From: a virus
Lineage: Duplodnaviria > Heunggongvirae > Uroviricota > Caudoviricetes
DNA: 32,272 bases
Strand: one strand, 5' to 3'
IMG/VR virus record: IMGVR_UViG_2778261667_000010
Coordinates: 1-32,272 of that record
The notes beneath the pieces are model-generated. The model saw only the letters and a list, made by a program, of their open reading frames with translations. It made no database searches and was not told where the DNA came from. The position numbers and the translations under genes were made by a program. This document shows positions 1 through 32,272 of this stretch, in pieces (position 1 is the stretch's first letter; each line of letters opens with the position of its first letter).

Positions 1-1362
1 ATGTTTAAACCGGAACTCCTTTCCCCGGCGGGAACGCTGAAAAATATGCGTTACGCTTTCGCTTATGGCGCAGATGCTGTTTATGCGGGGCAACCGCGTT
101 ACTCCCTGCGTGTGCGCAACAACGAATTTAACCACGAAAATCTCCAGCTCGGCATCAATGAAGCCCACGCGCTGGGGAAAAAGTTTTATGTCGTGGTCAA
201 CATTGCGCCACACAATGCCAAGCTAAAAACCTTTATCCGTGATCTGAAACCGGTGGTGGAAATGGGGCCGGACGCACTGATTATGTCCGATCCGGGGCTG
301 ATTATGCTGGTGCGTGAACACTTCCCTGAAATGCCGATCCACCTTTCCGTGCAGGCCAACGCCGTAAACTGGGCGACGGTGAAATTCTGGCAGCAAATGG
401 GGTTGACCCGCGTGATCCTCTCCCGCGAGCTGTCGCTGGAAGAGATTGAAGAGATCCGCAATCAGGTTCCGGATATGGAGCTTGAAATCTTCGTTCACGG
501 CGCGCTGTGCATGGCCTACTCCGGCCGCTGCCTGCTCTCTGGCTACATCAACAAACGCGATCCAAACCAGGGCACCTGCACCAACGCCTGCCGTTGGGAG
601 TACAACGTGCAGGAAGGGAAAGAAGATGACGTTGGCAACATCGTACACAAATACGAGCCGATTCCGGTGCAAAACGTCGAGCCGACGCTGGGTATCGGTG
701 CGCCAACCGACAAAGTGTTTATGATCGAAGAAGCCCAGCGCCCGGGCGAGTATATGACCGCGTTTGAAGATGAGCACGGCACTTACATCATGAACTCGAA
801 AGATCTGCGCGCCATCGCCCACGTTGAACGCCTGACCAAAATGGGCGTGCATTCGCTGAAAATCGAAGGCCGCACTAAATCTTTCTACTATTGTGCACGT
901 ACCGCGCAGGTTTATCGTAAAGCTATCGATGACGCCGCTGCGGGCAAACCGTTCGACACCAGCCTGCTGGAAACACTGGAAGGCCTGGCGCATCGTGGTT
1001 ACACCGAAGGTTTCCTGCGTCGTCATACTCACGACGATTACCAGAACTACGAATACGGTTATTCCGTTTCTGACCGCCAGCAGTTTGTTGGAGAGTTTAC
1101 CGGTGAGCGTAAAGGCTCTCTGGCAGCCGTAGCGGTGAAAAATAAATTCTCCGTTGGCGACAGCCTGGAACTGATGACGCCACAGGGCAATATCAACTTT
1201 ACCCTTGAGCACATGGAAAACGCCAAAGGTGAAGCGATGCCGGTCGCGCCTGGCGATGGCTATACCGTGTGGCTCCCGGTTCCGCAGGATCTCGAGCTGA
1301 ATTACGCACTGCTGATGCGTAATTTCTCCGGGGAAACCACGCGTAACCCGCACGGTAAGTGA
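1..1362 (+). CDS. yegQ: U32-family peptidase-like protein YegQ (also called TrhP, tRNA hydroxylation factor); host gene
   Basis: ATG at 1, uninterrupted 453-codon ORF; translation recognised from memory as E. coli YegQ/TrhP; lies upstream of cyaR as in E. coli. Confidence 0.85.
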   Translation: MFKPELLSPAGTLKNMRYAFAYGADAVYAGQPRYSLRVRNNEFNHENLQLGINEAHALGKKFYVVVNIAPHNAKLKTFIRDLKPVVEMGPDALIMSDPGLIMLVREHFPEMPIHLSVQANAVNWATVKFWQQMGLTRVILSRELSLEEIEEIRNQVPDMELEIFVHGALCMAYSGRCLLSGYINKRDPNQGTCTNACRWEYNVQEGKEDDVGNIVHKYEPIPVQNVEPTLGIGAPTDKVFMIEEAQRPGEYMTAFEDEHGTYIMNSKDLRAIAHVERLTKMGVHSLKIEGRTKSFYYCARTAQVYRKAIDDAAAGKPFDTSLLETLEGLAHRGYTEGFLRRHTHDDYQNYEYGYSVSDRQQFVGEFTGERKGSLAAVAVKNKFSVGDSLELMTPQGNINFTLEHMENAKGEAMPVAPGDGYTVWLPVPQDLELNYALLMRNFSGETTRNPHGK

Positions 1363-1439: not shown

Positions 1440-1446
1440 CTGTTTC

Positions 1447-1533
1447 GCTGAAAAACATAACCCATAAAATGCTAGCTGTACCAGGAACCACCTCCTTAGC
1501 CTGTGTAATCTCCCTTACACGGGCTTATTTTTT
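1447..1533 (+). ncRNA. cyaR: CyaR (RyeE) Hfq-binding small RNA
   Basis: Sequence GCTGAAAAACATAACCCATAAAATGCTAGCTGTACCAGGAACCACCTCCTTAGCC... recognised as CyaR; ends in a 10-bp terminator stem (1497-1522) plus U-tract TTATTTTTT. Confidence 0.8.
1507..1533. other. P2 att core (27 bp, AATCTCCCTTACACGGGCTTATTTTTT), prophage-host junction overlapping the CyaR terminator
   Basis: Exact reverse complement of the recalled P2 core AAAAAATAAGCCCGTGTAAGGGAGATT; phage genes begin directly to the right. Confidence 0.7.
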
Positions 1534-3591: not shown

Positions 3592-6039
3592 TTAACCGTC
3601 ATGCATCATGCTGGCACGGGCGCGCGCACGTTTGTCCCGCTCGTATTTTTCGAGCGCATCCTGTAACTGGCGGTCGAGCTGTGTCCCCGGCGCAGTACCA
3701 CCCGTCAGGCTGATGTGATATTCGTTTTTACTCTGGTCTACATAAGAGCGGCCAGCCGGTGCCGTGACCGGCTGATAAGCCTGATAACCTGCATAAGAGC
3801 TGGTCGCCGGAATATAACCACCGCTGCCATACGTGGCGGCTTGAGTTCTGGCGGCGGTCTGGTCAAGTGTGTCTGACTCTTTGTTGATGACACCGAGTTT
3901 TTCCAGTACCCAGTCAATACCACTGCGCAGTTTGTTGAACGCATTAAGCGGCAGCATCAGCGCGTCAGCCAGTGCCTGCCCGAACATGACGCCCGTGTCA
4001 CGGCAACGGTTCAGGGTGTCCTGGGTGGCTTTGACCGGGGCAATCAGGTTTTTAAACCACTGCCACGCGGCCTGTAACTTTTCACCCAGCCAGTCAAACA
4101 CCGGCTTAAGTGGCGTGAACAGTTCCCCCACCGGCGCAAATGCCGCTTTCAGCCCTTCCACCACACCGCCAAAAAATGCGCTGACAGGCTCCCAGTATTT
4201 ACGGATAAGTAACGCCCCGGCGACAATGGCGGCCACCACGGCCACTACCGGCCAGCTAATCGCCCCGATGGCCGTCATAACGGCACTGCCAACCGTCGTG
4301 AAGATTGCCCCCATTGCGCCTGCTGCTGCGATAATGGCATTGATGCCAGTGATAACCGGCCAGGCTACAAGACCAATTGCACCGATGATGCCAATCAGCG
4401 CCAGCGCGCCACCGGCAATGATGCCAATGGTTGACGCCAGTGATTTGTTTTTCTGTATCCAGCCGTCGAGTTTTAACACATACTTTGTGGCCGTCTGTGT
4501 GAGCTTACGCAGTGCGCCTTCCTGCTGGTCAAACAGGTCTGTCCCTACCGCCTCATAAGCGGACTGAAACTCCTTAAAGTCACCGCCGAGGTTATCCTGC
4601 ATGATATTTACCAGCTCGGCGGTCTTCCCGTCTGAGGCTTTAAACGCAGCAGTCAGTTTGTCCAGCTTTCCGGTTGAGGCGGCAGTCATCAGCACGGCGG
4701 CGGCTGAGCTGGCCTCCTCCCCGAAAATAGTTTTCATGTATTCAGCCTGCTGGGCAGTACCGAGCCGGTTTTTCTCAAAACTGGCCTGCATTTCTTTCAG
4801 AATGGTAAATATTGGTCGGGTATTCCCCTTACTGTCTGAGGTTTTCACGCCAAGCTCTTTGAGTGCATCCCATGCTTTTCCCGTTGGTGCCTGCAGGCGA
4901 CTTAACACGGCACGGCTTCCCGTCCCCGCCATTGAGCCTGTGATTTTTGCATCATGCAGCGCCCCGACCATTGCGGCGGTTTCTTCAATGCTGACACCGG
5001 CATTTTTTGCCACAGGTGCGGCATAGGTCAGCGCATCGCTCATGCCGTCAAAATCGGCGGCGGTTTTGTTCATCGTCATGGAGAGAACATCCCCGATATG
5101 AGCGACCTTATCGTTTGAAAGCTGAAAGGCGGATTTCATCCCCATCAGCAGGGCGGCGTTTTCTTCCATCGTGCGGCGGTTCGCCAGCGCCATGTTCAGC
5201 GTGACCGGCGTTGCCGCCTGAATGGCATCAACATCCCCACCCGCTTTCGCGATGATTATCTGTGCACCGGCCGCATCATCCGCCGAGGCGGCGGTATTGT
5301 CGCCGAGCTGGCGCGCCTGTTTGCGTAGTGCGGTCATTTCGGCGGAGTCTTTTGCCACTCCGAGCACGGCCTGCAATTCTGAGTTTTTCTGCGCAAACTC
5401 ATAACCGGGCATCAGCAGCTTAACACCGGCCATCGTTCCCGCAGCAGCAATCCCCACACCGGCAGCGCCCACTGAGGCCATATTTCCGGCCAGCTCCTTT
5501 CCTGCCTGATAACGCTGTTTCACTGCGTTAAGTTTTGCCTGTTGCGCACTGACACGCGCCAGCGCGTCACGCTGCCGGTTAAGCTGTGCGGTGGTTTCAC
5601 TGATACGGTTTTTCAGCCCCTGCTCATCATGTGCAAGATTGCGGGTATTAATTCCCACAGCGGCCAGTTCCCGCTGCTGGCGTTTAACGGAATCCGTCAG
5701 GCGGTTATATTTCGCCTGTAAGTCCTCCGCCGCACGCTTTGCGGATTCCAGCACTTTCGCCTGAGCACGGGTCGGACGTTCAGTGTTTTTAAACTGTGTG
5801 GCAAGGGCTTCGGCCTCCTGCCGTGCCTTTTCAAGTGCATGACCAGTCACGGCGAGCTGTGCGCTGGTCTTGCGAAATCCCTCAATACGGGATGCCTGAC
5901 CGTTCAGCTCGCGCAGTGATTTTTGTGTTTCCCGGATATCCCCCGACAGCGACTTGCTCGCTGTGCGGATGGATTTAAACGGGCGGGATGCCTGGTCAAC
6001 AGCCCTGAGCAATACCTGTAATTTTACATTGTTACTCAT
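3592..6039 (-). CDS. T: tail tape measure protein gpT (815 aa)
   Basis: 815 aa, Ala/Gly-rich with hydrophobic central segment; position between E/E' and U. Confidence 0.9.
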   Translation of the reverse strand: MSNNVKLQVLLRAVDQASRPFKSIRTASKSLSGDIRETQKSLRELNGQASRIEGFRKTSAQLAVTGHALEKARQEAEALATQFKNTERPTRAQAKVLESAKRAAEDLQAKYNRLTDSVKRQQRELAAVGINTRNLAHDEQGLKNRISETTAQLNRQRDALARVSAQQAKLNAVKQRYQAGKELAGNMASVGAAGVGIAAAGTMAGVKLLMPGYEFAQKNSELQAVLGVAKDSAEMTALRKQARQLGDNTAASADDAAGAQIIIAKAGGDVDAIQAATPVTLNMALANRRTMEENAALLMGMKSAFQLSNDKVAHIGDVLSMTMNKTAADFDGMSDALTYAAPVAKNAGVSIEETAAMVGALHDAKITGSMAGTGSRAVLSRLQAPTGKAWDALKELGVKTSDSKGNTRPIFTILKEMQASFEKNRLGTAQQAEYMKTIFGEEASSAAAVLMTAASTGKLDKLTAAFKASDGKTAELVNIMQDNLGGDFKEFQSAYEAVGTDLFDQQEGALRKLTQTATKYVLKLDGWIQKNKSLASTIGIIAGGALALIGIIGAIGLVAWPVITGINAIIAAAGAMGAIFTTVGSAVMTAIGAISWPVVAVVAAIVAGALLIRKYWEPVSAFFGGVVEGLKAAFAPVGELFTPLKPVFDWLGEKLQAAWQWFKNLIAPVKATQDTLNRCRDTGVMFGQALADALMLPLNAFNKLRSGIDWVLEKLGVINKESDTLDQTAARTQAATYGSGGYIPATSSYAGYQAYQPVTAPAGRSYVDQSKNEYHISLTGGTAPGTQLDRQLQDALEKYERDKRARARASMMHDG

Positions 6040-22052: not shown

Positions 22053-23086
22053 TGAGCAAGAAAAAAGGGAAAACACCGCAACCTGCGGCAAAAACAATGA
22101 CCGCCAGCGCCCCGAAAATGGAGGCATTCACCTTTGGCGAGCCGGTGCCGGTACTCGACCGCCGTGACATTCTGGATTACGTCGAATGCATCAGTAACGG
22201 CAGATGGTATGAGCCGCCGGTCAGCTTTACCGGTCTGGCAAAAAGTCTGCGTGCTGCCGTGCATCACAGCTCACCGATTTACGTCAAACGTAATATTCTG
22301 GCTTCAACGTTTATCCCGCACCCGTGGCTTTCCCAGCAGGATTTCAGCCGCTTTGTGCTGGATTTTCTGGTGTTCGGTAATGCGTTTCTGGAAAAGCGTT
22401 ACAGCACCACCGGTAAGGTCATCAGACTGGAAACCTCACCGGCAAAATATACCCGCCGTGGCGTGGAGGAGGATGTTTACTGGTGGGTGCCGTCCTTCAA
22501 CGAACCGACAGCCTTCACGCCCGGTTCCGTGTTTCACCTGCTGGAGCCGGATATTAATCAGGAGCTGTACGGCCTGCCGGAATATCTCAGCGCCCTTAAC
22601 TCTGCCTGGCTGAATGAGTCGGCCACGCTGTTCCGCCGCAAGTATTACGAAAACGGCGCACATGCCGGATACATCATGTACGTTACCGATGCCGTGCAGG
22701 ATCGCAACGATATCGAAATGCTTCGCGAAAACATGGTGAAGTCGAAAGGCCGCAACAACTTTAAAAATCTGTTTCTCTATGCCCCACAAGGGAAAGCCGA
22801 CGGCATTAAAATTATCCCGCTCAGTGAAGTGGCGACGAAGGACGATTTTTTTAATATCAAAAAAGCCAGTGCCGCAGACCTGCTGGACGCCCACCGCATC
22901 CCCTTTCAGTTGATGGGCGGCAAGCCGGAGAACGTCGGGTCGCTGGGTGATATTGAGAAAGTGGCAAAGGTCTTTGTCCGCAATGAGCTTATCCCGTTAC
23001 AGGACAGGATCCGAGAGATAAACGGCTGGCTCGGTCAGGAGGTCATCCGCTTTAAAAACTACTCACTGGACACTGACAACGACTGA
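22052..23086 (+). CDS. Q: portal protein gpQ (344 aa)
   Basis: ATGA overlap with P stop; length and synteny match P2 Q. Confidence 0.9.
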   Translation: MSKKKGKTPQPAAKTMTASAPKMEAFTFGEPVPVLDRRDILDYVECISNGRWYEPPVSFTGLAKSLRAAVHHSSPIYVKRNILASTFIPHPWLSQQDFSRFVLDFLVFGNAFLEKRYSTTGKVIRLETSPAKYTRRGVEEDVYWWVPSFNEPTAFTPGSVFHLLEPDINQELYGLPEYLSALNSAWLNESATLFRRKYYENGAHAGYIMYVTDAVQDRNDIEMLRENMVKSKGRNNFKNLFLYAPQGKADGIKIIPLSEVATKDDFFNIKKASAADLLDAHRIPFQLMGGKPENVGSLGDIEKVAKVFVRNELIPLQDRIREINGWLGQEVIRFKNYSLDTDND

Positions 23087-23090
23087 ACAT

Positions 23091-23113
23091 CGCCGCCTGC
23101 GGGCGGCTTTTTT
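23091..23113 (+). terminator. intrinsic terminator after Q
   Basis: Stem GCCGCC/GGCGGC with loop TGCG, followed by TTTTTT (23108-23113). Confidence 0.75.
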
Positions 23114-23255
23114 ACATCCCGTCATCACGCCCTCACACGCTCACCACCGCACAAAACACCCCTTAGACACACCAACGCCCCGACGCACAATCTAAACGCC
23201 ATCACGACGCGCTCAGACGCTGAAAAAATAAAATCAGCACCACCGCCAGCGCGCA

Positions 23256-23274
23256 GTGCTTTCCCCGCCTCGCC
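23256..23274. other. cos: cos cohesive-end sequence (19 nt)
   Basis: GTGCTTTCCCCGCCTCGCC is the reverse complement of the recalled P2/P4 cohesive end GGCGAGGCGGGGAAAGCAC. Confidence 0.75.
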
Positions 23275-23368
23275 CGCCCGCTTCATGGGGCGGTTTTGAT
23301 GCAACCTCGTATTAAAGGGGACACCATAGCCCATCAAACCTCAGACTTCGCCCCTAGCTAACGTTTAT

Positions 23369-23398
23369 GAATGCAATGTAATGCAACTTAATGCAAGT
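23369..23398 (+). repeat. three 10-bp-phased direct repeats of (T/G)AATGCAA upstream of the cargo gene
   Basis: ATGCAA at 23371-23376, 23381-23386 and 23391-23396, exactly 10 bp apart, 60-90 bp upstream of the ATG at 23458. Confidence 0.7.
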
Positions 23399-23457
23399 TA
23401 TGGTAATGATAATTCTGCGTTAACAATTAAACTAATGTACCTGTAAGAGGATAAAAA

Positions 23458-25941
23458 ATGTCTGGTTTTTTCCTTGATTTAACCAAGCTTTCGCCCAGTG
23501 TAAATAGCGACACAGCGATTCCACCGCGAGATATATTTACAGCTCTACCGAGCAAAGACACCAAATTTCAATACCCTCGAGATGTGCAATCAGAGGTCTG
23601 GGAAAAATGGTATGAAGCAAGGAGAAGCCCAACCAATGTAATAAAAATGAATACCGGAAGCGGTAAAACTTCAGTTGGGTTAATCATTCTTAAAAGCTGT
23701 ATAAATGAAGGAGAAGGTCCCGCTGTATATGTTGTTCCTGACAACTATCTAGTTGAGCAAGTGGTTTTGGAGGCTAATCAACTTGGTATACCTGTAACTC
23801 AAGATGAGAGGTCCCCCAAATTTATTGCAGGTAAAGAAATTTTAGTTACAAATATATTCAAAGTGGTTAATGGACGTTCTGCATTTGGCGTTGGAGATGA
23901 TGGACAAAAAATACCAATAGGTTCTATAATAATTGACGATGCTCACGCTTGCCTTTCTTCAATTGAAGAACAATTCTCCATTAGCATTCAAAAAAATAAC
24001 CCTGCCTATGATAAATTATTCAGAATTTTTGAAAATTCACTAATGACACAAGCTGGTGCAAAAACACTAGAGATAAAATCCGGCGATAGAAATGCTTATG
24101 TGAGAGTTCCATTTTGGAAATGGCAAGAAAGCATAAATGATATAATGACAATCTTGTTAGAAAATAAAGACCATGATGACTTGAGTTTCAAATGGCCATT
24201 AATAAAAGACAATCTAATATTATCGAAATGCGTTGTAAGTGCTTCCAAAATAGAGATATCACCTCATTGCATACCAATCCAAATGATCCCAAGCCTATCA
24301 AACGCAAGAAGAAAAATATTCATGACAGCTACTCTTGTCGATGAATCCATTCTAGCGAGCCACTTCGGAATAACGGATGAATCACTCTCTAATCCGATAA
24401 CACCAAAAACAATTGGTGATATTGGTGATAGAATGATACTAATGCCTCAGGTTATAAACCCTAGTCTTTCTGATGTAGATATCAAAGCTATGTGCAAGGA
24501 GATATCCTCCAAACATAATGTTGTTGTAATTGTACCATCCGATTACAGAACTAGATTTTGGCAAGATGTTGCAGACAGAATATTAGATAAAAATACAATT
24601 TATCAAGGTGTACAAGAATTAAGGACACAACATGTTGGCTTAGTAGTCCTAGTTAATAGATATGATGGTATTGATTTACCAAATACCGCATGTCGTCTAT
24701 TAGTAATAGATGGACTTCCTGACGTTCGTAGACTAATAGATAAAGTCTCACAAAGCTTATTGCTTGGAAGCGAAAAAACCAAAGATGAAATTATCCAGAA
24801 AATTGAACAAGGAATGGGGCGAGGAGTGAGATCAAGCGACGACTTCTGCGGAGTGATCTTACTTGGCAAAGCATTAAATGGCGCTGTTTTCCTTGGCTCC
24901 TCCTTAGAAAGGTTTTCTCCAGCAACGAAAGCACAAATTCAACTTTCACAGCAATTGGTATCGATACTGCCGGATACAACTATTGATTCAATCAAAGGTG
25001 CTCTTGATTATTGTCTGTTACGCAATTCTGACTGGGTCTCAAAAAGCAAAGGTATATTGACTGGCTTAACATTGGAAAATAAGCAGATTGACCAGCATAC
25101 TATAAACAAAAGATTGGCATATGACTTCGCATCACGAAATATGTTTCAACAAGCCGCTTTAACTCTAAAAAATGATAGTAGTACAGCTGACAAAGTTTAT
25201 AAGGGTTATCTAAAAGAACATGCTGCGGAATATGTAAACTTATATGACAAATCTGAAGCTCAGATATTGCTTCAGTCTGCATCAAACGATAACTATCGGG
25301 TATTAAAACCACTAATCGGCGTAACATATAATAGACTTAATGGTGCGGCACTTGAACAGGCCAGGGAATGTAGCTCCTATCTCAGAAGTAATTTTGAATC
25401 GGCGAATCAAGTCGTTGTGCATACTAATTCAATAATAGAAAACCTTATTTTCTCCGAGGGCACATCGAATCCCTTCGAAGATGCTATCGAAAAAGTTGCA
25501 TATTTGATCGGTTTTCGTAGCCAACGGCCAGAAAATGATACAGGTAAAGGACCTGACAATTTATGGGCAATGGGAGAAAACAATTATCTAGTAATTGAAT
25601 GCAAAAATGGAGCAACCGCAGAAAGAATAAGTAAGCATGACTGCAATCAGTTAAATGGGTCGGGTGCATGGTTCAGAAACATGTATGATCAAACTGCTAC
25701 CGCCACACCTATAATGATACATCACTCTAACATGCCTGAATATGCCGCAACACTAAACGAAGGGTCTCGAATAATGACCATAAATGATCTTGAACGTTTT
25801 AAAGCATCTATCCTCAGTTTTATCACGGCCATTTGTACAAGTGATAAACGACACGATGAGATATTTATAAGAGAACAATTGATCACATGTAAATTACGTG
25901 CATCAGACATAGTTGAAACCTATACGCGAAACCCTCGTTAA
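23458..25941 (+). CDS. cargo protein (827 aa): SF2 helicase-like ATPase with C-terminal PD-(D/E)xK-like nuclease motif; candidate anti-phage defence protein
   Basis: ATG 23458 with RBS AGAGGA 7 nt upstream; visibly AT-rich codon usage unlike flanking phage genes. Motif I NTGSGKT (23653-23670), motif II DDAH (23935-23946), motif V-like YDGIDLP, motif VI QGMGRGVR (24808-24831); C-terminal GPD (D700, 25555-25557) ... IECK (E714/K716, 25597-25605). Confidence 0.85.
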   Translation: MSGFFLDLTKLSPSVNSDTAIPPRDIFTALPSKDTKFQYPRDVQSEVWEKWYEARRSPTNVIKMNTGSGKTSVGLIILKSCINEGEGPAVYVVPDNYLVEQVVLEANQLGIPVTQDERSPKFIAGKEILVTNIFKVVNGRSAFGVGDDGQKIPIGSIIIDDAHACLSSIEEQFSISIQKNNPAYDKLFRIFENSLMTQAGAKTLEIKSGDRNAYVRVPFWKWQESINDIMTILLENKDHDDLSFKWPLIKDNLILSKCVVSASKIEISPHCIPIQMIPSLSNARRKIFMTATLVDESILASHFGITDESLSNPITPKTIGDIGDRMILMPQVINPSLSDVDIKAMCKEISSKHNVVVIVPSDYRTRFWQDVADRILDKNTIYQGVQELRTQHVGLVVLVNRYDGIDLPNTACRLLVIDGLPDVRRLIDKVSQSLLLGSEKTKDEIIQKIEQGMGRGVRSSDDFCGVILLGKALNGAVFLGSSLERFSPATKAQIQLSQQLVSILPDTTIDSIKGALDYCLLRNSDWVSKSKGILTGLTLENKQIDQHTINKRLAYDFASRNMFQQAALTLKNDSSTADKVYKGYLKEHAAEYVNLYDKSEAQILLQSASNDNYRVLKPLIGVTYNRLNGAALEQARECSSYLRSNFESANQVVVHTNSIIENLIFSEGTSNPFEDAIEKVAYLIGFRSQRPENDTGKGPDNLWAMGENNYLVIECKNGATAERISKHDCNQLNGSGAWFRNMYDQTATATPIMIHHSNMPEYAATLNEGSRIMTINDLERFKASILSFITAICTSDKRHDEIFIREQLITCKLRASDIVETYTRNPR

Positions 25942-25945
25942 ACAG

Positions 25946-25980
25946 TAAAAGACCACCTCCTAAGGAGGTGGTCCTTGTAT
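25946..25980 (+). terminator. stem-loop terminator after the cargo gene, possibly bidirectional
   Basis: Perfect 10-bp stem GACCACCTCC/GGAGGTGGTC with loop TAA (25951-25973), 9 nt after the stop; short T-runs on both strands. Confidence 0.6.
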
Positions 25981-26181
25981 AATAAAAAGAACCAGTTTTT
26001 ATTGTTAATAATACAATTCTCGAATTTCAACATAGACTTATTGTACCACCAGTAAAATCATCAATATTAATATATAGAAAAAAAAGAAATGTCGATTATT
26101 TGTACGTAGCGTAATCATATTAACATATACAGATAAACAGCAACCTTACCATTATGCAACCAATCTAAAACATTATGTTTA

Positions 26182-28461
26182 TTACTCTGAATAACCAGAA
26201 AACCCACTCCACTCATCTACACTAGGATATGAAAATTGCTTTTCATTGTAATTGACGATCGCACCGCGTACTAACGCCTCAAGCTCCCATCGCTGCGGCC
26301 TGATACCGTTTTGAGCAAGGTCAACACGGATACGGGTGATTTGCAATCGTTCAGACCGGGTCAGTCTGGCCGATGGTGCAATTTCATGTGGTTTTAACGG
26401 GCTTCCGTTTCTTTGCTGACGACTTGGCGTTCTCCGACCGTGTTTTAATGCACCCCTGAGCGCCCTCACTACCTCCGGGTCATTCCATTCGATAACACCG
26501 TCATCAACCAGATTTAGCACTGCTGCGGCGTGCTCAGAAGGTGTGGGAGCCGGTAACGAAGTATCACCACCGGTGAGCTTTCCACAGTTATTGACAGGAC
26601 TCCGAGGCGCGGCGATGCCGCTTTTTAAAGTCAAAGGCTCAACGACCGGAACTTTCGGCACAATGCGCCAGTCCGTCGTTCTGGTGATATGAATATGACG
26701 CGCGCCGAGATGCGGCGCGTAAATGCCGACCACTCTCTCGACTTCTTCCTCGTACTCGTTAACTTCATCCGACGGACTACGGGCAACCCTGACAGTCTGA
26801 CAATCGCGCGGAACATTTGCCCCACCCTGCGCGCTGATATACAACGCAAAATCACCACTGTCTGCGGCAGCGCGTGCAGCCTCGACGCGTTCGTCAAACT
26901 CATCAGCAATGCTGACGCCGCGAGGCAATTTGCGTAGTTCACGGTAAGCCCCCATTGTCGGCAGGCCAACCGTTTTAAATTGCGGAATGCGCCACGTTGA
27001 CGCCCATGCGGTAACAGCCGCGGCAGTGTCTTTCAGCGGCCTGCCGGTATCGTTATCGAGCTGACCATCCAGTGCATAGCCGTCGATATTTTTCGAAATG
27101 TATTTCGCGATATATCCCGCAGCACCGCCCCGGTTAAGGTGTTTTGCCTGAAAACGGTTTCGCGCGGCTCCTCTTTCGTCGCCATCCTCTTTGAGCGCAT
27201 AGCGACGCATGATTTCGATAATCTGGTTACGCTGGCGTGGATTACAAAAAAGCATCATATGCCAGTGCGGCGTTCCGTCGTGGTGTGGCTCGACGACTCG
27301 CAAACCGTAGACCTGTAAATCATTATCCTTGAATGCCGTGCGCATCAGGCTCCAGATACGGCAGAGATAACGCTGCGCATCCTTTGGATTAAATGCCTCA
27401 TCATTCCAGCCGTGATTAAGCTGGACGGTTTTATTTTCGCCTTTTCCAACCTGACGTGTCGGGTGATACTTTGACGGCGCGGTAAGCGTGATAAACATCC
27501 CCACATCACCCTCTGAGGCGGCGTAACGCTCAATACCGGCAATGGTGTTCATCAGCTCCATCCGGCGAATTTCAGGATTAGAAATACTGCCCATCACCTT
27601 ACTGATAAGGTCGATGCGCTCGCCGGTTTCCCTGTTTTCAAGGTCACACGATTTAAGAAATTCCAGATTTGCCTGGCGGCGCGCACGCACATCACGAATG
27701 GCATGTTTACTGGCATAAGGAGAACAGTCTTTATTCACCTCCCCGACAGCAATCAGTAACGCCTCATGCCAGCGCATACGCTGGCCTTTAAGCTGATGAG
27801 TCCACCACTCATCGTTAAACAGACGGGCAATGGCAGAATATGCCTGCCTCGTGGTCATCTGTCCTTTACGGTATTTTTTCCAGTAGAGAGGGGAAATATT
27901 GAAAGCACGTGCAGCGCCAGCAACATGACCATAGAGGTGAGCCTGCGCCTCATCCGTAAACAGCGATTCTTTCTCGCCATGCGCATCCACCCAGGCATCG
28001 CAGAGTTCCTCATACATCATGAAAAGCTGTGATGAGATACGGGCGGCAAACTTTTTCAGCTCCTTGTCATTCATCCCCGGCAGGCGCGCATACTGGTCGC
28101 GCTCTGCCAGAAACAGCAACGACGCGTCGGTGTTCATTTCATGGCGCTGATTCACGCGCTCAATGCGCGGCCATAAACGACGCTGAAAAGTGGATGTGAG
28201 GAAATAAAACCCGTGCACCGGGCTTTTATTGCGCCGGATGTAGTCATAGCGTGAAGTAAACAGCGAGCGCAAAAAGTAAGGCAGGCGGTTAATCGTGGAT
28301 AAAACACCTTGCACCTGACGCATCTCGTCACGTGTAAGGGGTCTTTCGTGCCCGACAGCCTCGCGTGGCGCGTTCCATGCATAAGCACCGGTAAACGCCT
28401 TACCGGTGCCTGCGGCAAATGCTGACGGAGGGACAAAACGCCCGGAGGCTTTAACGGCCAT
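26182..28461 (-). CDS. A: replication initiation protein gpA (rolling-circle nickase, about 759 aa)
   Basis: Near-identical to recalled P2 gpA (MAVKASGRFVPPSAF...); ATG at 28459-28461. The track start at 28503 is a TTG extension. Confidence 0.9.
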   Translation of the reverse strand: MAVKASGRFVPPSAFAAGTGKAFTGAYAWNAPREAVGHERPLTRDEMRQVQGVLSTINRLPYFLRSLFTSRYDYIRRNKSPVHGFYFLTSTFQRRLWPRIERVNQRHEMNTDASLLFLAERDQYARLPGMNDKELKKFAARISSQLFMMYEELCDAWVDAHGEKESLFTDEAQAHLYGHVAGAARAFNISPLYWKKYRKGQMTTRQAYSAIARLFNDEWWTHQLKGQRMRWHEALLIAVGEVNKDCSPYASKHAIRDVRARRQANLEFLKSCDLENRETGERIDLISKVMGSISNPEIRRMELMNTIAGIERYAASEGDVGMFITLTAPSKYHPTRQVGKGENKTVQLNHGWNDEAFNPKDAQRYLCRIWSLMRTAFKDNDLQVYGLRVVEPHHDGTPHWHMMLFCNPRQRNQIIEIMRRYALKEDGDERGAARNRFQAKHLNRGGAAGYIAKYISKNIDGYALDGQLDNDTGRPLKDTAAAVTAWASTWRIPQFKTVGLPTMGAYRELRKLPRGVSIADEFDERVEAARAAADSGDFALYISAQGGANVPRDCQTVRVARSPSDEVNEYEEEVERVVGIYAPHLGARHIHITRTTDWRIVPKVPVVEPLTLKSGIAAPRSPVNNCGKLTGGDTSLPAPTPSEHAAAVLNLVDDGVIEWNDPEVVRALRGALKHGRRTPSRQQRNGSPLKPHEIAPSARLTRSERLQITRIRVDLAQNGIRPQRWELEALVRGAIVNYNEKQFSYPSVDEWSGFSGYSE

Positions 28462-28726
28462 ATGAGCCAAAAGCCTCAGAACAACGCTTGCTGAGTTGCT
28501 CAACCTGCGCGTTTAAATCAGCAAAAGACTTTGCGCTTCCGGTCAGAATATCGTGATGCATCAGGCCGGAAACGAGCTGGCTTAATTTCGGGTAATAACC
28601 AACCACCGCCAGCCATTCCTGACCGACATTTTTACCGCTTTCCGCTCTCTTTTTCTCGTGGAGAATAAACTGAAAGCTGTCACTGGTAACGACATAACGT
28701 TCGCCAATTTCAATACGAATACTCAT
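28451..28726 (-). CDS. small early-operon protein (91 aa), orf83-like
   Basis: ATG at 28724-28726, ATGA overlap with upstream ORF; position immediately upstream of A. Confidence 0.7.
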   Translation of the reverse strand: MSIRIEIGERYVVTSDSFQFILHEKKRAESGKNVGQEWLAVVGYYPKLSQLVSGLMHHDILTGSAKSFADLNAQVEQLSKRCSEAFGSYGR

Positions 28727-28947
28727 GCCATTCTCCGGTAATGCTTGTTTTTTGCTTCAAAGACTGACTGACAGGAAACACAACGCGTGGCTGACGGGTA
28801 AGCCGCACGACGGGCAGCAGGTATTGGCGCGTCACACTCTTCGCAAACCAGCGCAGAAGCACCGCAATGTTTTACCCTTGCCGCGTTAATCTGGCGCTCC
28901 AGTAATTCAGCTTGTTGTTCCTGAATAAAATCTACGTTGTCCGGCAT
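28723..28947 (-). CDS. DksA/TraR-family C4 zinc-finger protein (74 aa)
   Basis: CEECDAPIPAARRAAYPSATRCVSC fits the DksA/TraR signature C-[DES]-x-C-x3-I-x3-R-x4-P-x4-C-x2-C; translationally coupled overlaps at both ends. Confidence 0.8.
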   Translation of the reverse strand: MPDNVDFIQEQQAELLERQINAARVKHCGASALVCEECDAPIPAARRAAYPSATRCVSCQSVFEAKNKHYRRMA

Positions 28948-29237
28948 TACCAGTTCCTTTTGTCGTTCAGTTTCTTAAATTCATCAGCGCAATAGCTGGT
29001 GACTTCTGTCGTTAATTTTGTCAGTTCATCCACGGAGGAAATTTGCTTATGAAATACAGCGCGTTTAACAAGTAAATTGACCACATCAGACAGGAGATTT
29101 AATTTATCCGCATAAATGGCTATAGTTGATTCAACCATATCCCCAGTGTTTTTATCGCGTTTAATATCAGCTAGAGACAAATCACCATTTTTCATAACTG
29201 AAATCTTCAGCCAGTTATTAAGCAATATATTTTTCAT
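28947..29237 (-). CDS. hypothetical early-operon protein (96 aa), AT-rich
   Basis: ATG at 29235-29237, ATGA overlaps both neighbours; AT-rich, Lys/Asn/Leu-rich product; no motif recognised. Confidence 0.6.
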   Translation of the reverse strand: MKNILLNNWLKISVMKNGDLSLADIKRDKNTGDMVESTIAIYADKLNLLSDVVNLLVKRAVFHKQISSVDELTKLTTEVTSYCADEFKKLNDKRNW

Positions 29238-29479
29238 TCGCTATATGCCCTCTCCGCAGAATCAATCATTTCCCGGCCATTATCGGTAATACAGAAACCT
29301 TCTCTTGATTTGGTCACAAGCCCCCATTTCCCCATTGCTATAAATGCTTTTTCCACACGACTAGGCCAGGAGCGGAAGACATCGCTTGATGGATGTAGTG
29401 GAGTCTTGTCATCTAATTTTTTAAGTAATGAAAGTTGATAATCTGTTAAGCGTTTCCTGAACCATTTTGTATTTGTCAT
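29234..29479 (-). CDS. hypothetical early-operon protein (81 aa)
   Basis: ATG at 29477-29479 (the track start is a TTG extension); overlaps the downstream ORF. Confidence 0.6.
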   Translation of the reverse strand: MTNTKWFRKRLTDYQLSLLKKLDDKTPLHPSSDVFRSWPSRVEKAFIAMGKWGLVTKSREGFCITDNGREMIDSAERAYSE

Positions 29480-29493
29480 CTCCAACTTTCCTG

Positions 29494-29706
29494 TTATTTA
29501 TTGAGTCCTAGATTATGGAATTTGGCAGACTCCTGACTGAGCAACTCGACTATCTCCACGCGGGATAACTCCGCCTTTGTGATGTGGCGAATCATGGCAT
29601 CAAGATGAGACGAAAAGCGCGTTGCTGCGTCGGCCTGTGCTTCGGTTCTGGCCTGTTGCAGCATTAATGCGTATTTACCGCACTGATTTTCAGAAACTGT
29701 ATGCAT
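29494..29706 (-). CDS. hypothetical early-operon protein (about 70 aa), orf80-like
   Basis: ATG at 29704-29706 with GGAG upstream; the track ORF starts at an upstream GTG. Confidence 0.55.
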
Positions 29707-29768
29707 GACTTTCTCCAGGCAAAAAGAAGCCCGCACGATTAAGTGCGTTAAAAACTCTGGTTAATTAC

Positions 29769-30269
29769 TTAATGCAGATATTGCTCTGGTTTTACCGATG
29801 TCAGAATTGTCGGTGCATACTCAAACAGACTGAATAATTCACGTAATGCACGGAATAAAGCATCACGCCAGTAACATGATTCTTCATTAATTCGCCAGTA
29901 CGGCTGGTTAAATTCTTTTTCTGTCAGTCGTGCGTGCATAAATAAAGTGCGACGCTGACTTACTGTTAAAAAACTAATATATGCATACTCACTTGCGCCA
30001 ACCTGACGGCGTTTTGAGAATGCCCCACGCAATTCATCAATTGCACAAACCAGCCGTTCACGTTCGACGTCGTTCATTTCTTCAAAACGCATCGTTGCGT
30101 GACGCTGTTTTAACTGCGCATGGAAGCAAACCGTTAGCCGTTCGCGTTCCATCATCTGATTATAATAATCGCATGTCTCCTGCCAGCGAGGGACGGCCAG
30201 ATGCTTACCAATTATCCGGCGCATAGCTGCTGGCTGTTTTTCAACGAGATTGAGCGTCATCACTGTCAT
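29769..30269 (-). CDS. B: replication protein gpB (166 aa)
   Basis: Length and synteny match P2 B. Confidence 0.85.
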   Translation of the reverse strand: MTVMTLNLVEKQPAAMRRIIGKHLAVPRWQETCDYYNQMMERERLTVCFHAQLKQRHATMRFEEMNDVERERLVCAIDELRGAFSKRRQVGASEYAYISFLTVSQRRTLFMHARLTEKEFNQPYWRINEESCYWRDALFRALRELFSLFEYAPTILTSVKPEQYLH

Positions 30270-30436
30270 TTCCAGACCCTCCGGCTTTTCAGAAAGGTCA
30301 GAGCCTTTTTTAACGGACTCTGTTTTTTGGTGCGGATAATGATTCCCTTACGCCCCTTACCATGGGTGATGGTGAAGTCAATCGCCCTGGGGCTTTCGTT
30401 ACGCAATAACTGAGCAATACAACAAGGCTCATTCAT
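30266..30436 (-). CDS. small early protein (56 aa), orf78-like
   Basis: ATG at 30434-30436 preceded by AAGGAG; the track ORF begins at an upstream GTG. Confidence 0.6.
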   Translation of the reverse strand: MNEPCCIAQLLRNESPRAIDFTITHGKGRKGIIIRTKKQSPLKKALTFLKSRRVWK

Positions 30437-30446
30437 ACGGTTCTCC

Positions 30447-30722
30447 TTAACGTGGTTCACCGAGACCTAACCACATCAACCAGCCGTCACGAATCTCTTT
30501 AGGACGGCTTTCATAAGCCAGTTTTAGTCCGTTATTCCATGCCGGAAGGTATACCCAATATTCACCAGCACGCCCCGATACTGACTGAGGGTCAGTAATC
30601 TCAATAACTGGTAATTTCCCTTTCTCAATCATGCCCCTTACAGCTCTTGGAGTTTTACCAATGAGTTTTGCAAACTCCTGATAAGGCACGGCATCAGTCA
30701 CGCTTACAAGCTGTCTATTCAT
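30447..30722 (-). CDS. cox: Cox, excisionase and early/lysogenic switch regulator (91 aa)
   Basis: ...DPQSVSGRAGEYWVYLPAWNNGLKLAYESRPKEIRDGWLMWLGLGEPR recognised as P2 Cox family; first gene of the early operon, divergent from C. Confidence 0.9.
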   Translation of the reverse strand: MNRQLVSVTDAVPYQEFAKLIGKTPRAVRGMIEKGKLPVIEITDPQSVSGRAGEYWVYLPAWNNGLKLAYESRPKEIRDGWLMWLGLGEPR

Positions 30723-30843
30723 CTGCTACGATTCTCCCTTAGTGCTTCTAATGGCTCCTAATGGCTAATTATTGCCTAAAAGGATAACTCCAGAAGCACA
30801 ACATTTCACACCATCAGCAAGAAATTACGCAATCGGAGTAATT
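30723..30843. promoter_or_regulatory. immunity switch region (Pe/Pc) with direct-repeat operator CTAATGGCT x2
   Basis: CTAATGGCT at 30748-30756 and 30758-30766 (10-bp register) between divergent cox and C starts; P2 C is known to bind direct repeats spanning the early promoter. Confidence 0.5.
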
Positions 30844-31143
30844 ATGTCAATAGACGTTTCGGAGAAGTTGAAGCTAATCCGTGAATCTGAAAGGTTAAAC
30901 CGTAAAGAATTCAGTGAATTAACTGGTGTAGCCTACAGCTCACTTTCGAGCTATGAGAGCCGGTCAAAAAACGCTGGAGTTGAAGCCATAATGAAGGTCT
31001 TACAACATCCTAGATTTACTAAATATACTTTGTGGTTCATGACTGATCAGGTAGCTCCAGAAGCCGGGCAAATTGCGCCCGCTCTCGCACACTTTGGGCA
31101 AAACGAAACAACGTCGCCCCACTCCGGTCAAAAGACTGGTTAA
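30844..31143 (+). CDS. C: immunity repressor C (99 aa)
   Basis: ATG at 30844; C-terminus ...FTKYTLWFMTDQVAPEAGQIAPALAHFGQNETTSPHSGQKTG is P2 C-like; the track ORF is a TTG-initiated extension. Confidence 0.85.
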   Translation: MSIDVSEKLKLIRESERLNRKEFSELTGVAYSSLSSYESRSKNAGVEAIMKVLQHPRFTKYTLWFMTDQVAPEAGQIAPALAHFGQNETTSPHSGQKTG

Positions 31144-31258
31144 CAATTTATCGTGAATATATTCATCACAAGTGCCTACTATTGGTGGCTAAATTTCAGC
31201 CACCACGAAAAAAGCGATTAGTAGTAGCAAAAAAAAGTACCACTCGGAGGGTTTTCTG

Positions 31259-32272
31259 ATGGCAATCAAAAAACTCGATGATGGTCGATATGAAGTGGAC
31301 ATCCGCCCTACTGGACGTAATGGAAAACGCATCCGTAGGAAGTTTGATAAGAAAAGCGAAGCTGTCGCTTTCGAAAAATACACGTTGTACAACCACCACA
31401 ATAAAGAATGGCTATCAAAACCAACAGACAAACGACGTCTGTCGGAACTGACACAGATCTGGTGGGATTTAAAGGGTAAACACGAAGAGCATGGGAAATC
31501 TAATCTTGGAAAAATTGAAATCTTCACAAAAATAACGAATGACCCATGCGCATTTCAAATCACGAAATCCCTTATCAGCCAGTACTGCGCCACCCGAAGA
31601 AGTCAGGGTATTAAACCTTCGAGTATCAATCGTGATTTAACATGTATTAGCGGCATGTTTACAGCCCTGATTGAAGCGGAGTTATTCTTTGGTGAGCACC
31701 CTATCAGAGGGACAAAGAGGCTTAAGGAGGAAAAACCAGAAACAGGCTATCTCACACAGGAAGAAATTGCCTTACTGCTTGCAGCACTTGACGGCGACAA
31801 TAAAAAGATTGCGATTCTTTGCCTGAGTACAGGAGCACGTTGGGGAGAAGCAGCTCGTTTGAAAGCAGAAAATATCATCCATAACCGCGTCACGTTTGTT
31901 AAAACGAAAACAAACAAACCACGCACCGTCCCGATCTCAGAGGCTGTTGCCAAAATGATCGCGGATAACAAACGAGGTTTTTTATTCCCTGATGCTGATT
32001 ACCCTCGCTTCAGACGAACAATGAAAGCAATAAAACCGGATTTGCCAACGGGGCAAGCCACACATGCACTAAGGCACAGCTTTGCCACTCATTTCATGAT
32101 TAATGGAGGAAATATTATCACGCTACAACGGATACTAGGTCACACGCGGATTGAGCAAACTATGGTTTACGCTCATTTTGCGCCAGAGTACCTTCAGGAC
32201 GCCATTTCTCTTAATCCGCTAAGAGGTGGTACTGAGGCCGAGAGTGTCCACACAGTGTCCACAGTAGAGTAA
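31259..32272 (+). CDS. int: tyrosine integrase Int (337 aa)
   Basis: 337 aa, RBS GGAGGG upstream; C-terminal catalytic region with HALRHSFATH...TLQRILGHTRIEQTMVYAHF; stop is the last codon of the window. Confidence 0.9.
   Translation: MAIKKLDDGRYEVDIRPTGRNGKRIRRKFDKKSEAVAFEKYTLYNHHNKEWLSKPTDKRRLSELTQIWWDLKGKHEEHGKSNLGKIEIFTKITNDPCAFQITKSLISQYCATRRSQGIKPSSINRDLTCISGMFTALIEAELFFGEHPIRGTKRLKEEKPETGYLTQEEIALLLAALDGDNKKIAILCLSTGARWGEAARLKAENIIHNRVTFVKTKTNKPRTVPISEAVAKMIADNKRGFLFPDADYPRFRRTMKAIKPDLPTGQATHALRHSFATHFMINGGNIITLQRILGHTRIEQTMVYAHFAPEYLQDAISLNPLRGGTEAESVHTVSTVE

Follow-up and report, generated by a model that had tools for sequence, protein, structure and literature searches.

Which of the small genes lying between B and A in the early operon of a P2-like phage belong to the backbone of these viruses, and which have been acquired by individual lineages? 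The question is raised by the IMG/VR record IMGVR_UViG_2778261667_000010, a stretch of 32,272 nucleotides (analysed here at its full length and called the window) that represents a nearly complete prophage of the P2-like type (Peduovirus), whose early operon runs along the minus strand. A preliminary description, made from the sequence alone, had counted five small open reading frames (ORFs) between B and A, had singled out one of 74 amino acids (aa) as a zinc-finger protein of the DksA/TraR type, and had proposed that two others, of 96 and 81 aa, were moron-like acquisitions. The five ORFs are indeed there, and those of 74, 96 and 81 aa are real and lie on the minus strand. We conclude that the region is very probably the orf80-orf83 segment of the Pe early operon, in which the 74-aa protein is the TraR-type Orf82, the 96-aa protein is the backbone protein Orf81 and the 81-aa gene is a rare cassette. 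This last gene is the only unusual item in the stretch, rare, uncharacterised and of modest interest.

The gene order (Table 1) was assigned from synteny with the annotated P2 record together with family scans (Pfam, PHROG). A 1.6-kb query around the small ORFs matched 75 phage records at 90-99% identity, P2, Wphi and R18C among them, and matched the Yersinia phages vB_YpM_115 and vB_YpM_117 over its full length. The region is syntenic with P2 and with these two Yersinia phages, at 93-98% DNA identity, and at the position of the hairpin found here between B and orf80 the P2 record annotates a putative rho-independent terminator. No RNA family was detected in the orf80-orf83 region by an Rfam scan. 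The five ORFs had been described as translationally coupled, and this holds for four junctions that overlap when read from the sequence (ATGA from the 81- to the 96-aa ORF, TAATG from the 96- to the 74-aa ORF, ATGA from the 74- to the 91-aa ORF and 11 nt from the latter to A), but not for the passage from orf80 to the 81-aa ORF, where there is no overlap and a 14-nt spacer containing AGGA was found instead. The segment would be transcribed along with cox, B and A once the C repressor is lifted.

The 74-aa protein is the most straightforward of the three. It is identical to P2 Orf82 in 73 of 74 residues, the sole change being the C-terminal M73 (T73 in P2), and it scores above the cutoffs of both Pfam PF01258 zf-dskA_traR (E value 2.9e-11, 43.6 bits against 24.9) and TIGR02419 (78.3 bits against 59.7), besides belonging to PHROG 54. 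The C4 finger (CxxC-x17-CxxC) is formed by C35, C38, C56 and C59, and the protein matches the TraR chains of the RNA polymerase (RNAP) complexes 5w1s and 6n57 with E values of about 1e-9. At the N-terminus, DNVDFI contains D3 and D6 of the DxxDxA motif, with Ile instead of Ala at position 8. The TraR reading is correct but not new, RNAP binding having already been published for P2 Orf82, which Gopalkrishnan and colleagues purified along with four other TraR homologues from phages (PMC9239242). In that work the P2 protein bound Escherichia coli RNAP at the DksA site, competed with DksA about as well as TraR does, inhibited rrnB P1 without guanosine tetraphosphate (ppGpp), with a half-maximal inhibitory concentration of 250 nM, and complemented a dksA-null strain; its lower activity is, in the authors' view, due in part to the lack of A8 in DxxDxA, and they cite earlier work in which its overexpression stopped cell growth (PMC9239242). 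The Orf82 of the window probably acts on RNAP in the same way. If it behaves like its 99%-identical P2 counterpart, its N-terminal helix would enter the secondary channel of RNAP, ribosomal promoters would be shut down and amino-acid promoters stimulated without ppGpp, and host transcription would be reprogrammed during lytic growth.

The 96-aa ORF had been regarded as devoid of any motif, and this did not hold: the protein matches Pfam DUF5405 over its full length (E value 4.3e-26; 91.6 bits, the cutoff being 21.6) and belongs to PHROG 265. It is 78% identical to P2 Orf81 (100 aa), with the differences concentrated in the N-terminal half and a near-identical C-terminal half, and its gene occupies the slot between orf80 and orf82, as in P2-like early operons. 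Of 5426 complete E. coli genomes, 1564 contain DNA homologous to orf81. Its marked AT-richness is real, with a G+C content (GC) of 0.351 that falls within the lowest 3% of windows of the same length, while the 81-aa ORF is moderate in this respect (0.411, lowest 12%). As the whole early operon has a GC of just 0.446 (0.519 in the window, 0.555 in the late genes), orf81 contrasts strongly with its immediate neighbours and the 81-aa ORF modestly. Since P2 orf81 (GC 0.373) is as AT-rich as the copy studied here, low GC is an old trait of this backbone gene and no sign of recent acquisition. In other words, Orf81 is a conserved backbone DUF5405 protein, AT-rich in all the P2 relatives examined, and the idea of a moron-like 96-aa gene has to be abandoned; that these ORFs might turn out to be P2 backbone genes was the very observation that the preliminary description had named as speaking against it.

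The fold predicted for the 96-aa protein (β4-α2) matches no solved structure, and for the label "replication initiation protein" that Orf81 carries in PHROG and RefSeq we found no experimental basis. The Orf81-like and Orf83-like genes flank the TraR gene (window 28947-29237 and 28451-28726), and a match to the DUF5405 profile was obtained for the 91-aa Orf83-like product as well (E value 1.4e-12, 48.3 bits). BLASTP gave no alignment between the two proteins, so that we rejected them as obvious paralogues, the shared Pfam profile being the only link; the arrangement nevertheless suggests an ancient duplication. Scans of the 81-, 96-, 91- and 70-aa proteins against NCBIfam and PADLOC gave no match, and a literature search on DUF5405, DUF2732 and orf80-83 returned no functional work beyond the Orf82 paper.

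There remains the 81-aa gene. The alignment to P2 breaks at 29227/29506, where 278 bp in the window stand in place of 45 bp in P2. This insert, as DNA or protein, was detected in 2 of 50,697 phage records, both of them Yersinia phages (i.e., 2 of the 75 matching records), and in 54 of the 5426 complete E. coli genomes, or 54 of the 1564 with orf81. In E. coli it is always flanked by the genes of the DUF2732 and DUF5405 proteins, and its annotation reads "hypothetical protein". Within IMG/VR, 20 loci have the gene against 523 that encode a relative of B (about 4%), and among the 78 loci whose B is at least 99% identical to that of the window, the canonical P2 order is found in 70 and the 81-aa gene, at the same slot, in 6. 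An alternative TTG start at 29485 would extend the product to 83 aa. Disrupted copies were also seen. Locus L023 (2831-3853) carries an insertion of ca. 770 bp with a 9-bp duplication on its flanks, as expected in size and signature for an insertion sequence (IS) of the IS1 type, and in two loci of E. albertii (L025, 3554-3800; L027, 4001-4247) a 1-bp insertion shifts the frame. The gene is thus dispensable in at least some prophages.

Carriers share more than the gene itself. One particular allele of the N-terminal half of orf81 was found in exactly 54 E. coli genomes and adjoins the 81-aa gene in every comparable row. At loci without the gene the orf81 segment is 81-88% identical to that of the window, against 94-96% on the orf80/B side, and identity to other relatives falls upstream of about 29105-29135. 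This linkage, together with the drop in identity along the orf81 segment, indicates that the unit of inheritance is a block of ca. 400 bp (about 29105-29505). No meaningful repeats flank the cassette, and a search for promoter- or terminator-like sites on the minus strand flanking 29234-29493 found none. With no promoter of its own and coupled to orf81, the 81-aa gene should be expressed only when Pe fires and is not a classical moron; it is an in-operon cassette, and as it sits within a repressor-controlled lytic operon no expression is expected from the prophage. The moron-like label thus captured a true presence/absence polymorphism, which combined with atypical composition is found in this gene alone and not in the 96-aa backbone gene, but it fails as regards autonomous expression.

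What does this cassette encode? The 81-aa protein has no Pfam or NCBIfam family, but it belongs to PHROG 11056 (E value 5e-59) and is predicted to be a winged helix, so that the lack of any recognisable motif is not confirmed for this ORF either. Its family is very small. A word-indexed search among 5.8 billion proteins gave five clusters, in an exhaustive HMMER search of 1.84 billion representatives the only distinct relative was P0127 (74 aa; 45% identity; E value 5.5e-8), and profile searching contributed a further sequence of the same 74-aa subtype, from Lelliottia. The family amounts to about 8 clusters at 90% identity among the 5.8 billion proteins. A match of 1511 aa (P0128) was rejected as spurious, being a repetitive protein that hits one 16-residue motif many times. 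Where the context was examined, the members come from P2-like early operons of Escherichia and from a divergent lineage represented by Lelliottia, in which the 74-aa homologue (44-45% identical) occupies the same slot in an operon that runs B, orf80, homologue, orf83, A and has neither orf81 nor orf82.

A single-sequence AF2 model of the 81-aa protein, with a predicted local distance difference test (pLDDT) score of 73.8, has the succession helix-helix-helix-β-hairpin-helix. The predicted three-helix bundle followed by a β-hairpin wing is that of a winged helix-turn-helix (wHTH) domain. Residues conserved between the 81-aa and 74-aa subtypes lie in helix 1, in the wing and where the putative recognition helix begins; R36, S37, S40 and K44 of the putative recognition helix are shared by both subfamilies, and the net charge is about +4. 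Close alleles differ by 7 synonymous versus 5 nonsynonymous substitutions. The fold, the conservation between subtypes and the pattern of substitutions are our reasons for treating the ORF as a real gene, and most likely it encodes a small winged-helix protein, made early, as would be expected from its position, alongside the replication proteins. Comparison of the model with solved structures gave generic winged-helix matches only in PDB and nothing significant in BFVD. That the protein binds DNA is a reasonable possibility, on which we would not yet rely.

Several points weigh against the picture drawn so far. No Pfam wHTH family (MarR, HTH_45, Mrr_N and others) reaches its threshold with the 81-aa protein, the best E values being 0.017-0.04 (14-16 bits against cutoffs of 25-30); the winged-helix model is a single-sequence one of medium confidence, and the fold is too common to fix a function. 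Disrupted copies exist, as in the loci L023, L025 and L027 described above and in the frameshifted proteins P0003 and P0004. Codon 38 (29366-29368) is TGG, encoding Trp; at this point of the conserved "FRSCPS" motif, Cys is found in most alleles and in the 74-aa homologue. As to the TraR part, Orf82 lacks A8 of DxxDxA just like P2 Orf82, which is less active than TraR (PMC9239242).

Among other roles for the 81-aa gene, the one that survives best is that of a host-takeover factor whose winged helix binds protein, for example by contacting sigma70 or RNAP like the N-terminal domain of T4 MotA, or by acting on or with Orf81. The strict co-inheritance of the gene with a single allele of the N-terminal half of Orf81 would fit such a role, as would the position of the Lelliottia-type homologue in place of orf81 and orf82, but recombination breakpoints suffice to explain the co-inheritance, and the similarity to MotA is not significant (E value 0.9) and is confined to a generic "GLV..G..iT..G" wing motif that many wHTH proteins have in common. 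We regard this alternative as unlikely. The lead towards a MotA-like sigma-binding protein had consisted of three weak signals and was dropped, the direct profile comparison with PDB giving the E value of 0.9 over 31 residues. A match of the 81-aa protein to PHROG 1345 is partial (E value 0.004).

The preliminary description had also considered counter-defence factors at this position, in which case the AT-rich 81- and 96-aa genes might act against restriction or abortive infection. Both genes are small and early, and the variable presence of the one and the allelic, variable N-terminal half encoded by the other (orf81) form a pattern seen at arms-race loci. Nevertheless, there is no homology to anything characterised (neither PADLOC matches nor informative homologues were obtained), Orf81 is a near-universal backbone gene, and the recognised variable locus of this phage lies elsewhere, at 23-26 kb, with a PDC-S28 candidate defence helicase. 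Nothing was thus found in support of this role, with no anti-defence library among those searched, and we consider it improbable.

Nor do we give much credit to reading the 81-aa ORF as a passenger without function, a remnant decaying within the operon. Its rarity, the frameshifted and IS-disrupted copies and the Trp in place of the conserved Cys38 could be read in this way, but the full-length frame is intact in all but one of the 54 E. coli genomes, another lineage has, at the same slot, a 44%-identical homologue in which the core residues are conserved, the single-sequence fold prediction is confident enough, and both the ATGA coupling and the upstream AGGA have been preserved. Synonymous substitutions are also more numerous than neutrality predicts, although their count is small. 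Least probable of all, and a mere outside chance in our estimation, is that the protein represents a family of early effectors, not described so far and confined to P2-like phages, that works with the N-terminal domain of Orf81 and, in the Lelliottia-type lineage, functionally replaces the Orf81-Orf82 (TraR) module; if true, the family would be a second, structurally unrelated P2-like route to reprogramme host transcription or replication.

Table 1. Features of the early region and of the adjoining immunity and integration genes (positions in the window).
Feature	Position	Strand	Remarks
int	31259-32272	+	
C-like repressor	30772-31143	+	
cox	30447-30722	-	
orf78-like	30266-30436	-	
B	29769-30269	-	
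Terminator-like hairpin between B and orf80	29732-29747	-	Within the 62-nt gap between B and orf80
orf80-like, DUF2732 protein of 70 aa from ATG	29494-29706	-	91% identical to P2 Orf80
Accessory 81-aa gene, absent from P2	29234-29479	-	ATG start; PHROG 11056; predicted stand-alone wHTH
orf81 allele, 96-aa DUF5405 protein	28947-29237	-	78% identical to P2 Orf81
orf82, 74-aa TraR/DksA-family C4 zinc-finger protein	28723-28947	-	73/74 identical to P2 Orf82
orf83-like, 91-aa protein	28451-28726	-	Second, more distant DUF5405 member
A	from 28461 downwards	-	
Co-inherited mosaic block (last orf80 codons, 81-aa gene, N-terminal half of orf81)	29105-29505	-	Boundaries approximate

Variation in this prophage type is not restricted to the slot of the 81-aa gene. 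Between orf83 and A, 3 of the 78 close relatives (L007, at 3877-4695 on the plus strand; L028; L104) have an ORF of 272 aa without any Pfam match, whose insertion truncates the C-terminus of orf83 and alters the N-terminus of A; here the operon has a second slot for cassettes. An AT-rich block at about 23000-26180 of the window (GC 0.38) contains a helicase-like ORF of 827 aa (ResIII/DEAD/Helicase_C_2; 23458-25941, plus strand) that matches PDC-S28, a candidate defence system of PADLOC, from end to end (E value 0, 1056 bits), at what we take to be the position where P2 carries orf91, tin and old downstream of gene A. The immunity and integration module (30447-32272) is mosaic when compared with loci L007, L024 and L026. 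Most carriers of the 81-aa gene have an integrase 53% identical to that of the window and a different cox, and in the distant L026 lineage integrase and cox are both 85% identical to those of the window, which means that the cassette is not tied to the immunity type.

The window starts with a host gene for a U32 peptidase (1-1362, plus strand) followed by the CyaR/RyeE small RNA (1445-1530, plus strand; 100.7 bits in Rfam), which places the prophage next to cyaR, presumably a known attachment region for P2-like elements. Of the 54 complete E. coli records with this prophage type, there are at least 14 (e.g., NZ_CP146507, NZ_CP095856 and NZ_CP185789) in which the match lies ca. 1 kb from the end of the record. 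These records must therefore begin exactly at the start codon of P2 gene A, a start-fixing tool presumably having taken gpA for a replication initiator.

With an Orf82 nearly identical to a published protein and a 96-aa ORF that is standard backbone, most of what we describe is known phage anatomy. What can be added is that P2-like phages do not have a fixed orf80-orf83 interval, which accepts cassettes within the operon (the 81-aa gene here, the 272-aa ORF in relatives), that the winged-helix family is extremely narrow, restricted to one slot and linked to one allele of Orf81, and that DUF5405 has a predicted fold without a solved relative. The cassette slots, the 81-aa family and the DUF5405 fold are modest leads for the study of the uncharacterised early genes of P2.

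Among known systems, P2 Orf82 (compare also TraR of the F plasmid and Orf73 of lambda) shares with the protein of the window its position in the Pe operon, the C4 finger, D3 and D6, and the missing A8. P2 Orf81 differs from the present allele in length (100 versus 96 aa) and in its N-terminal half, which in the window is of a distinct type that occurs only with the 81-aa gene. The 81-aa protein can be compared to wHTH proteins of the MarR, Rio2-N or TubR type, but it lacks the dimerisation helices of MarR and has no significant membership in a Pfam or NCBIfam wHTH family. Finally, the accessory cassettes known as morons in lambdoid and P2 phages resemble the 81-aa gene in their presence or absence at a fixed site and in a GC below that of their neighbours; they have a promoter and terminator of their own, whereas the 81-aa gene is coupled to its neighbours within a lytic operon under the control of the repressor.
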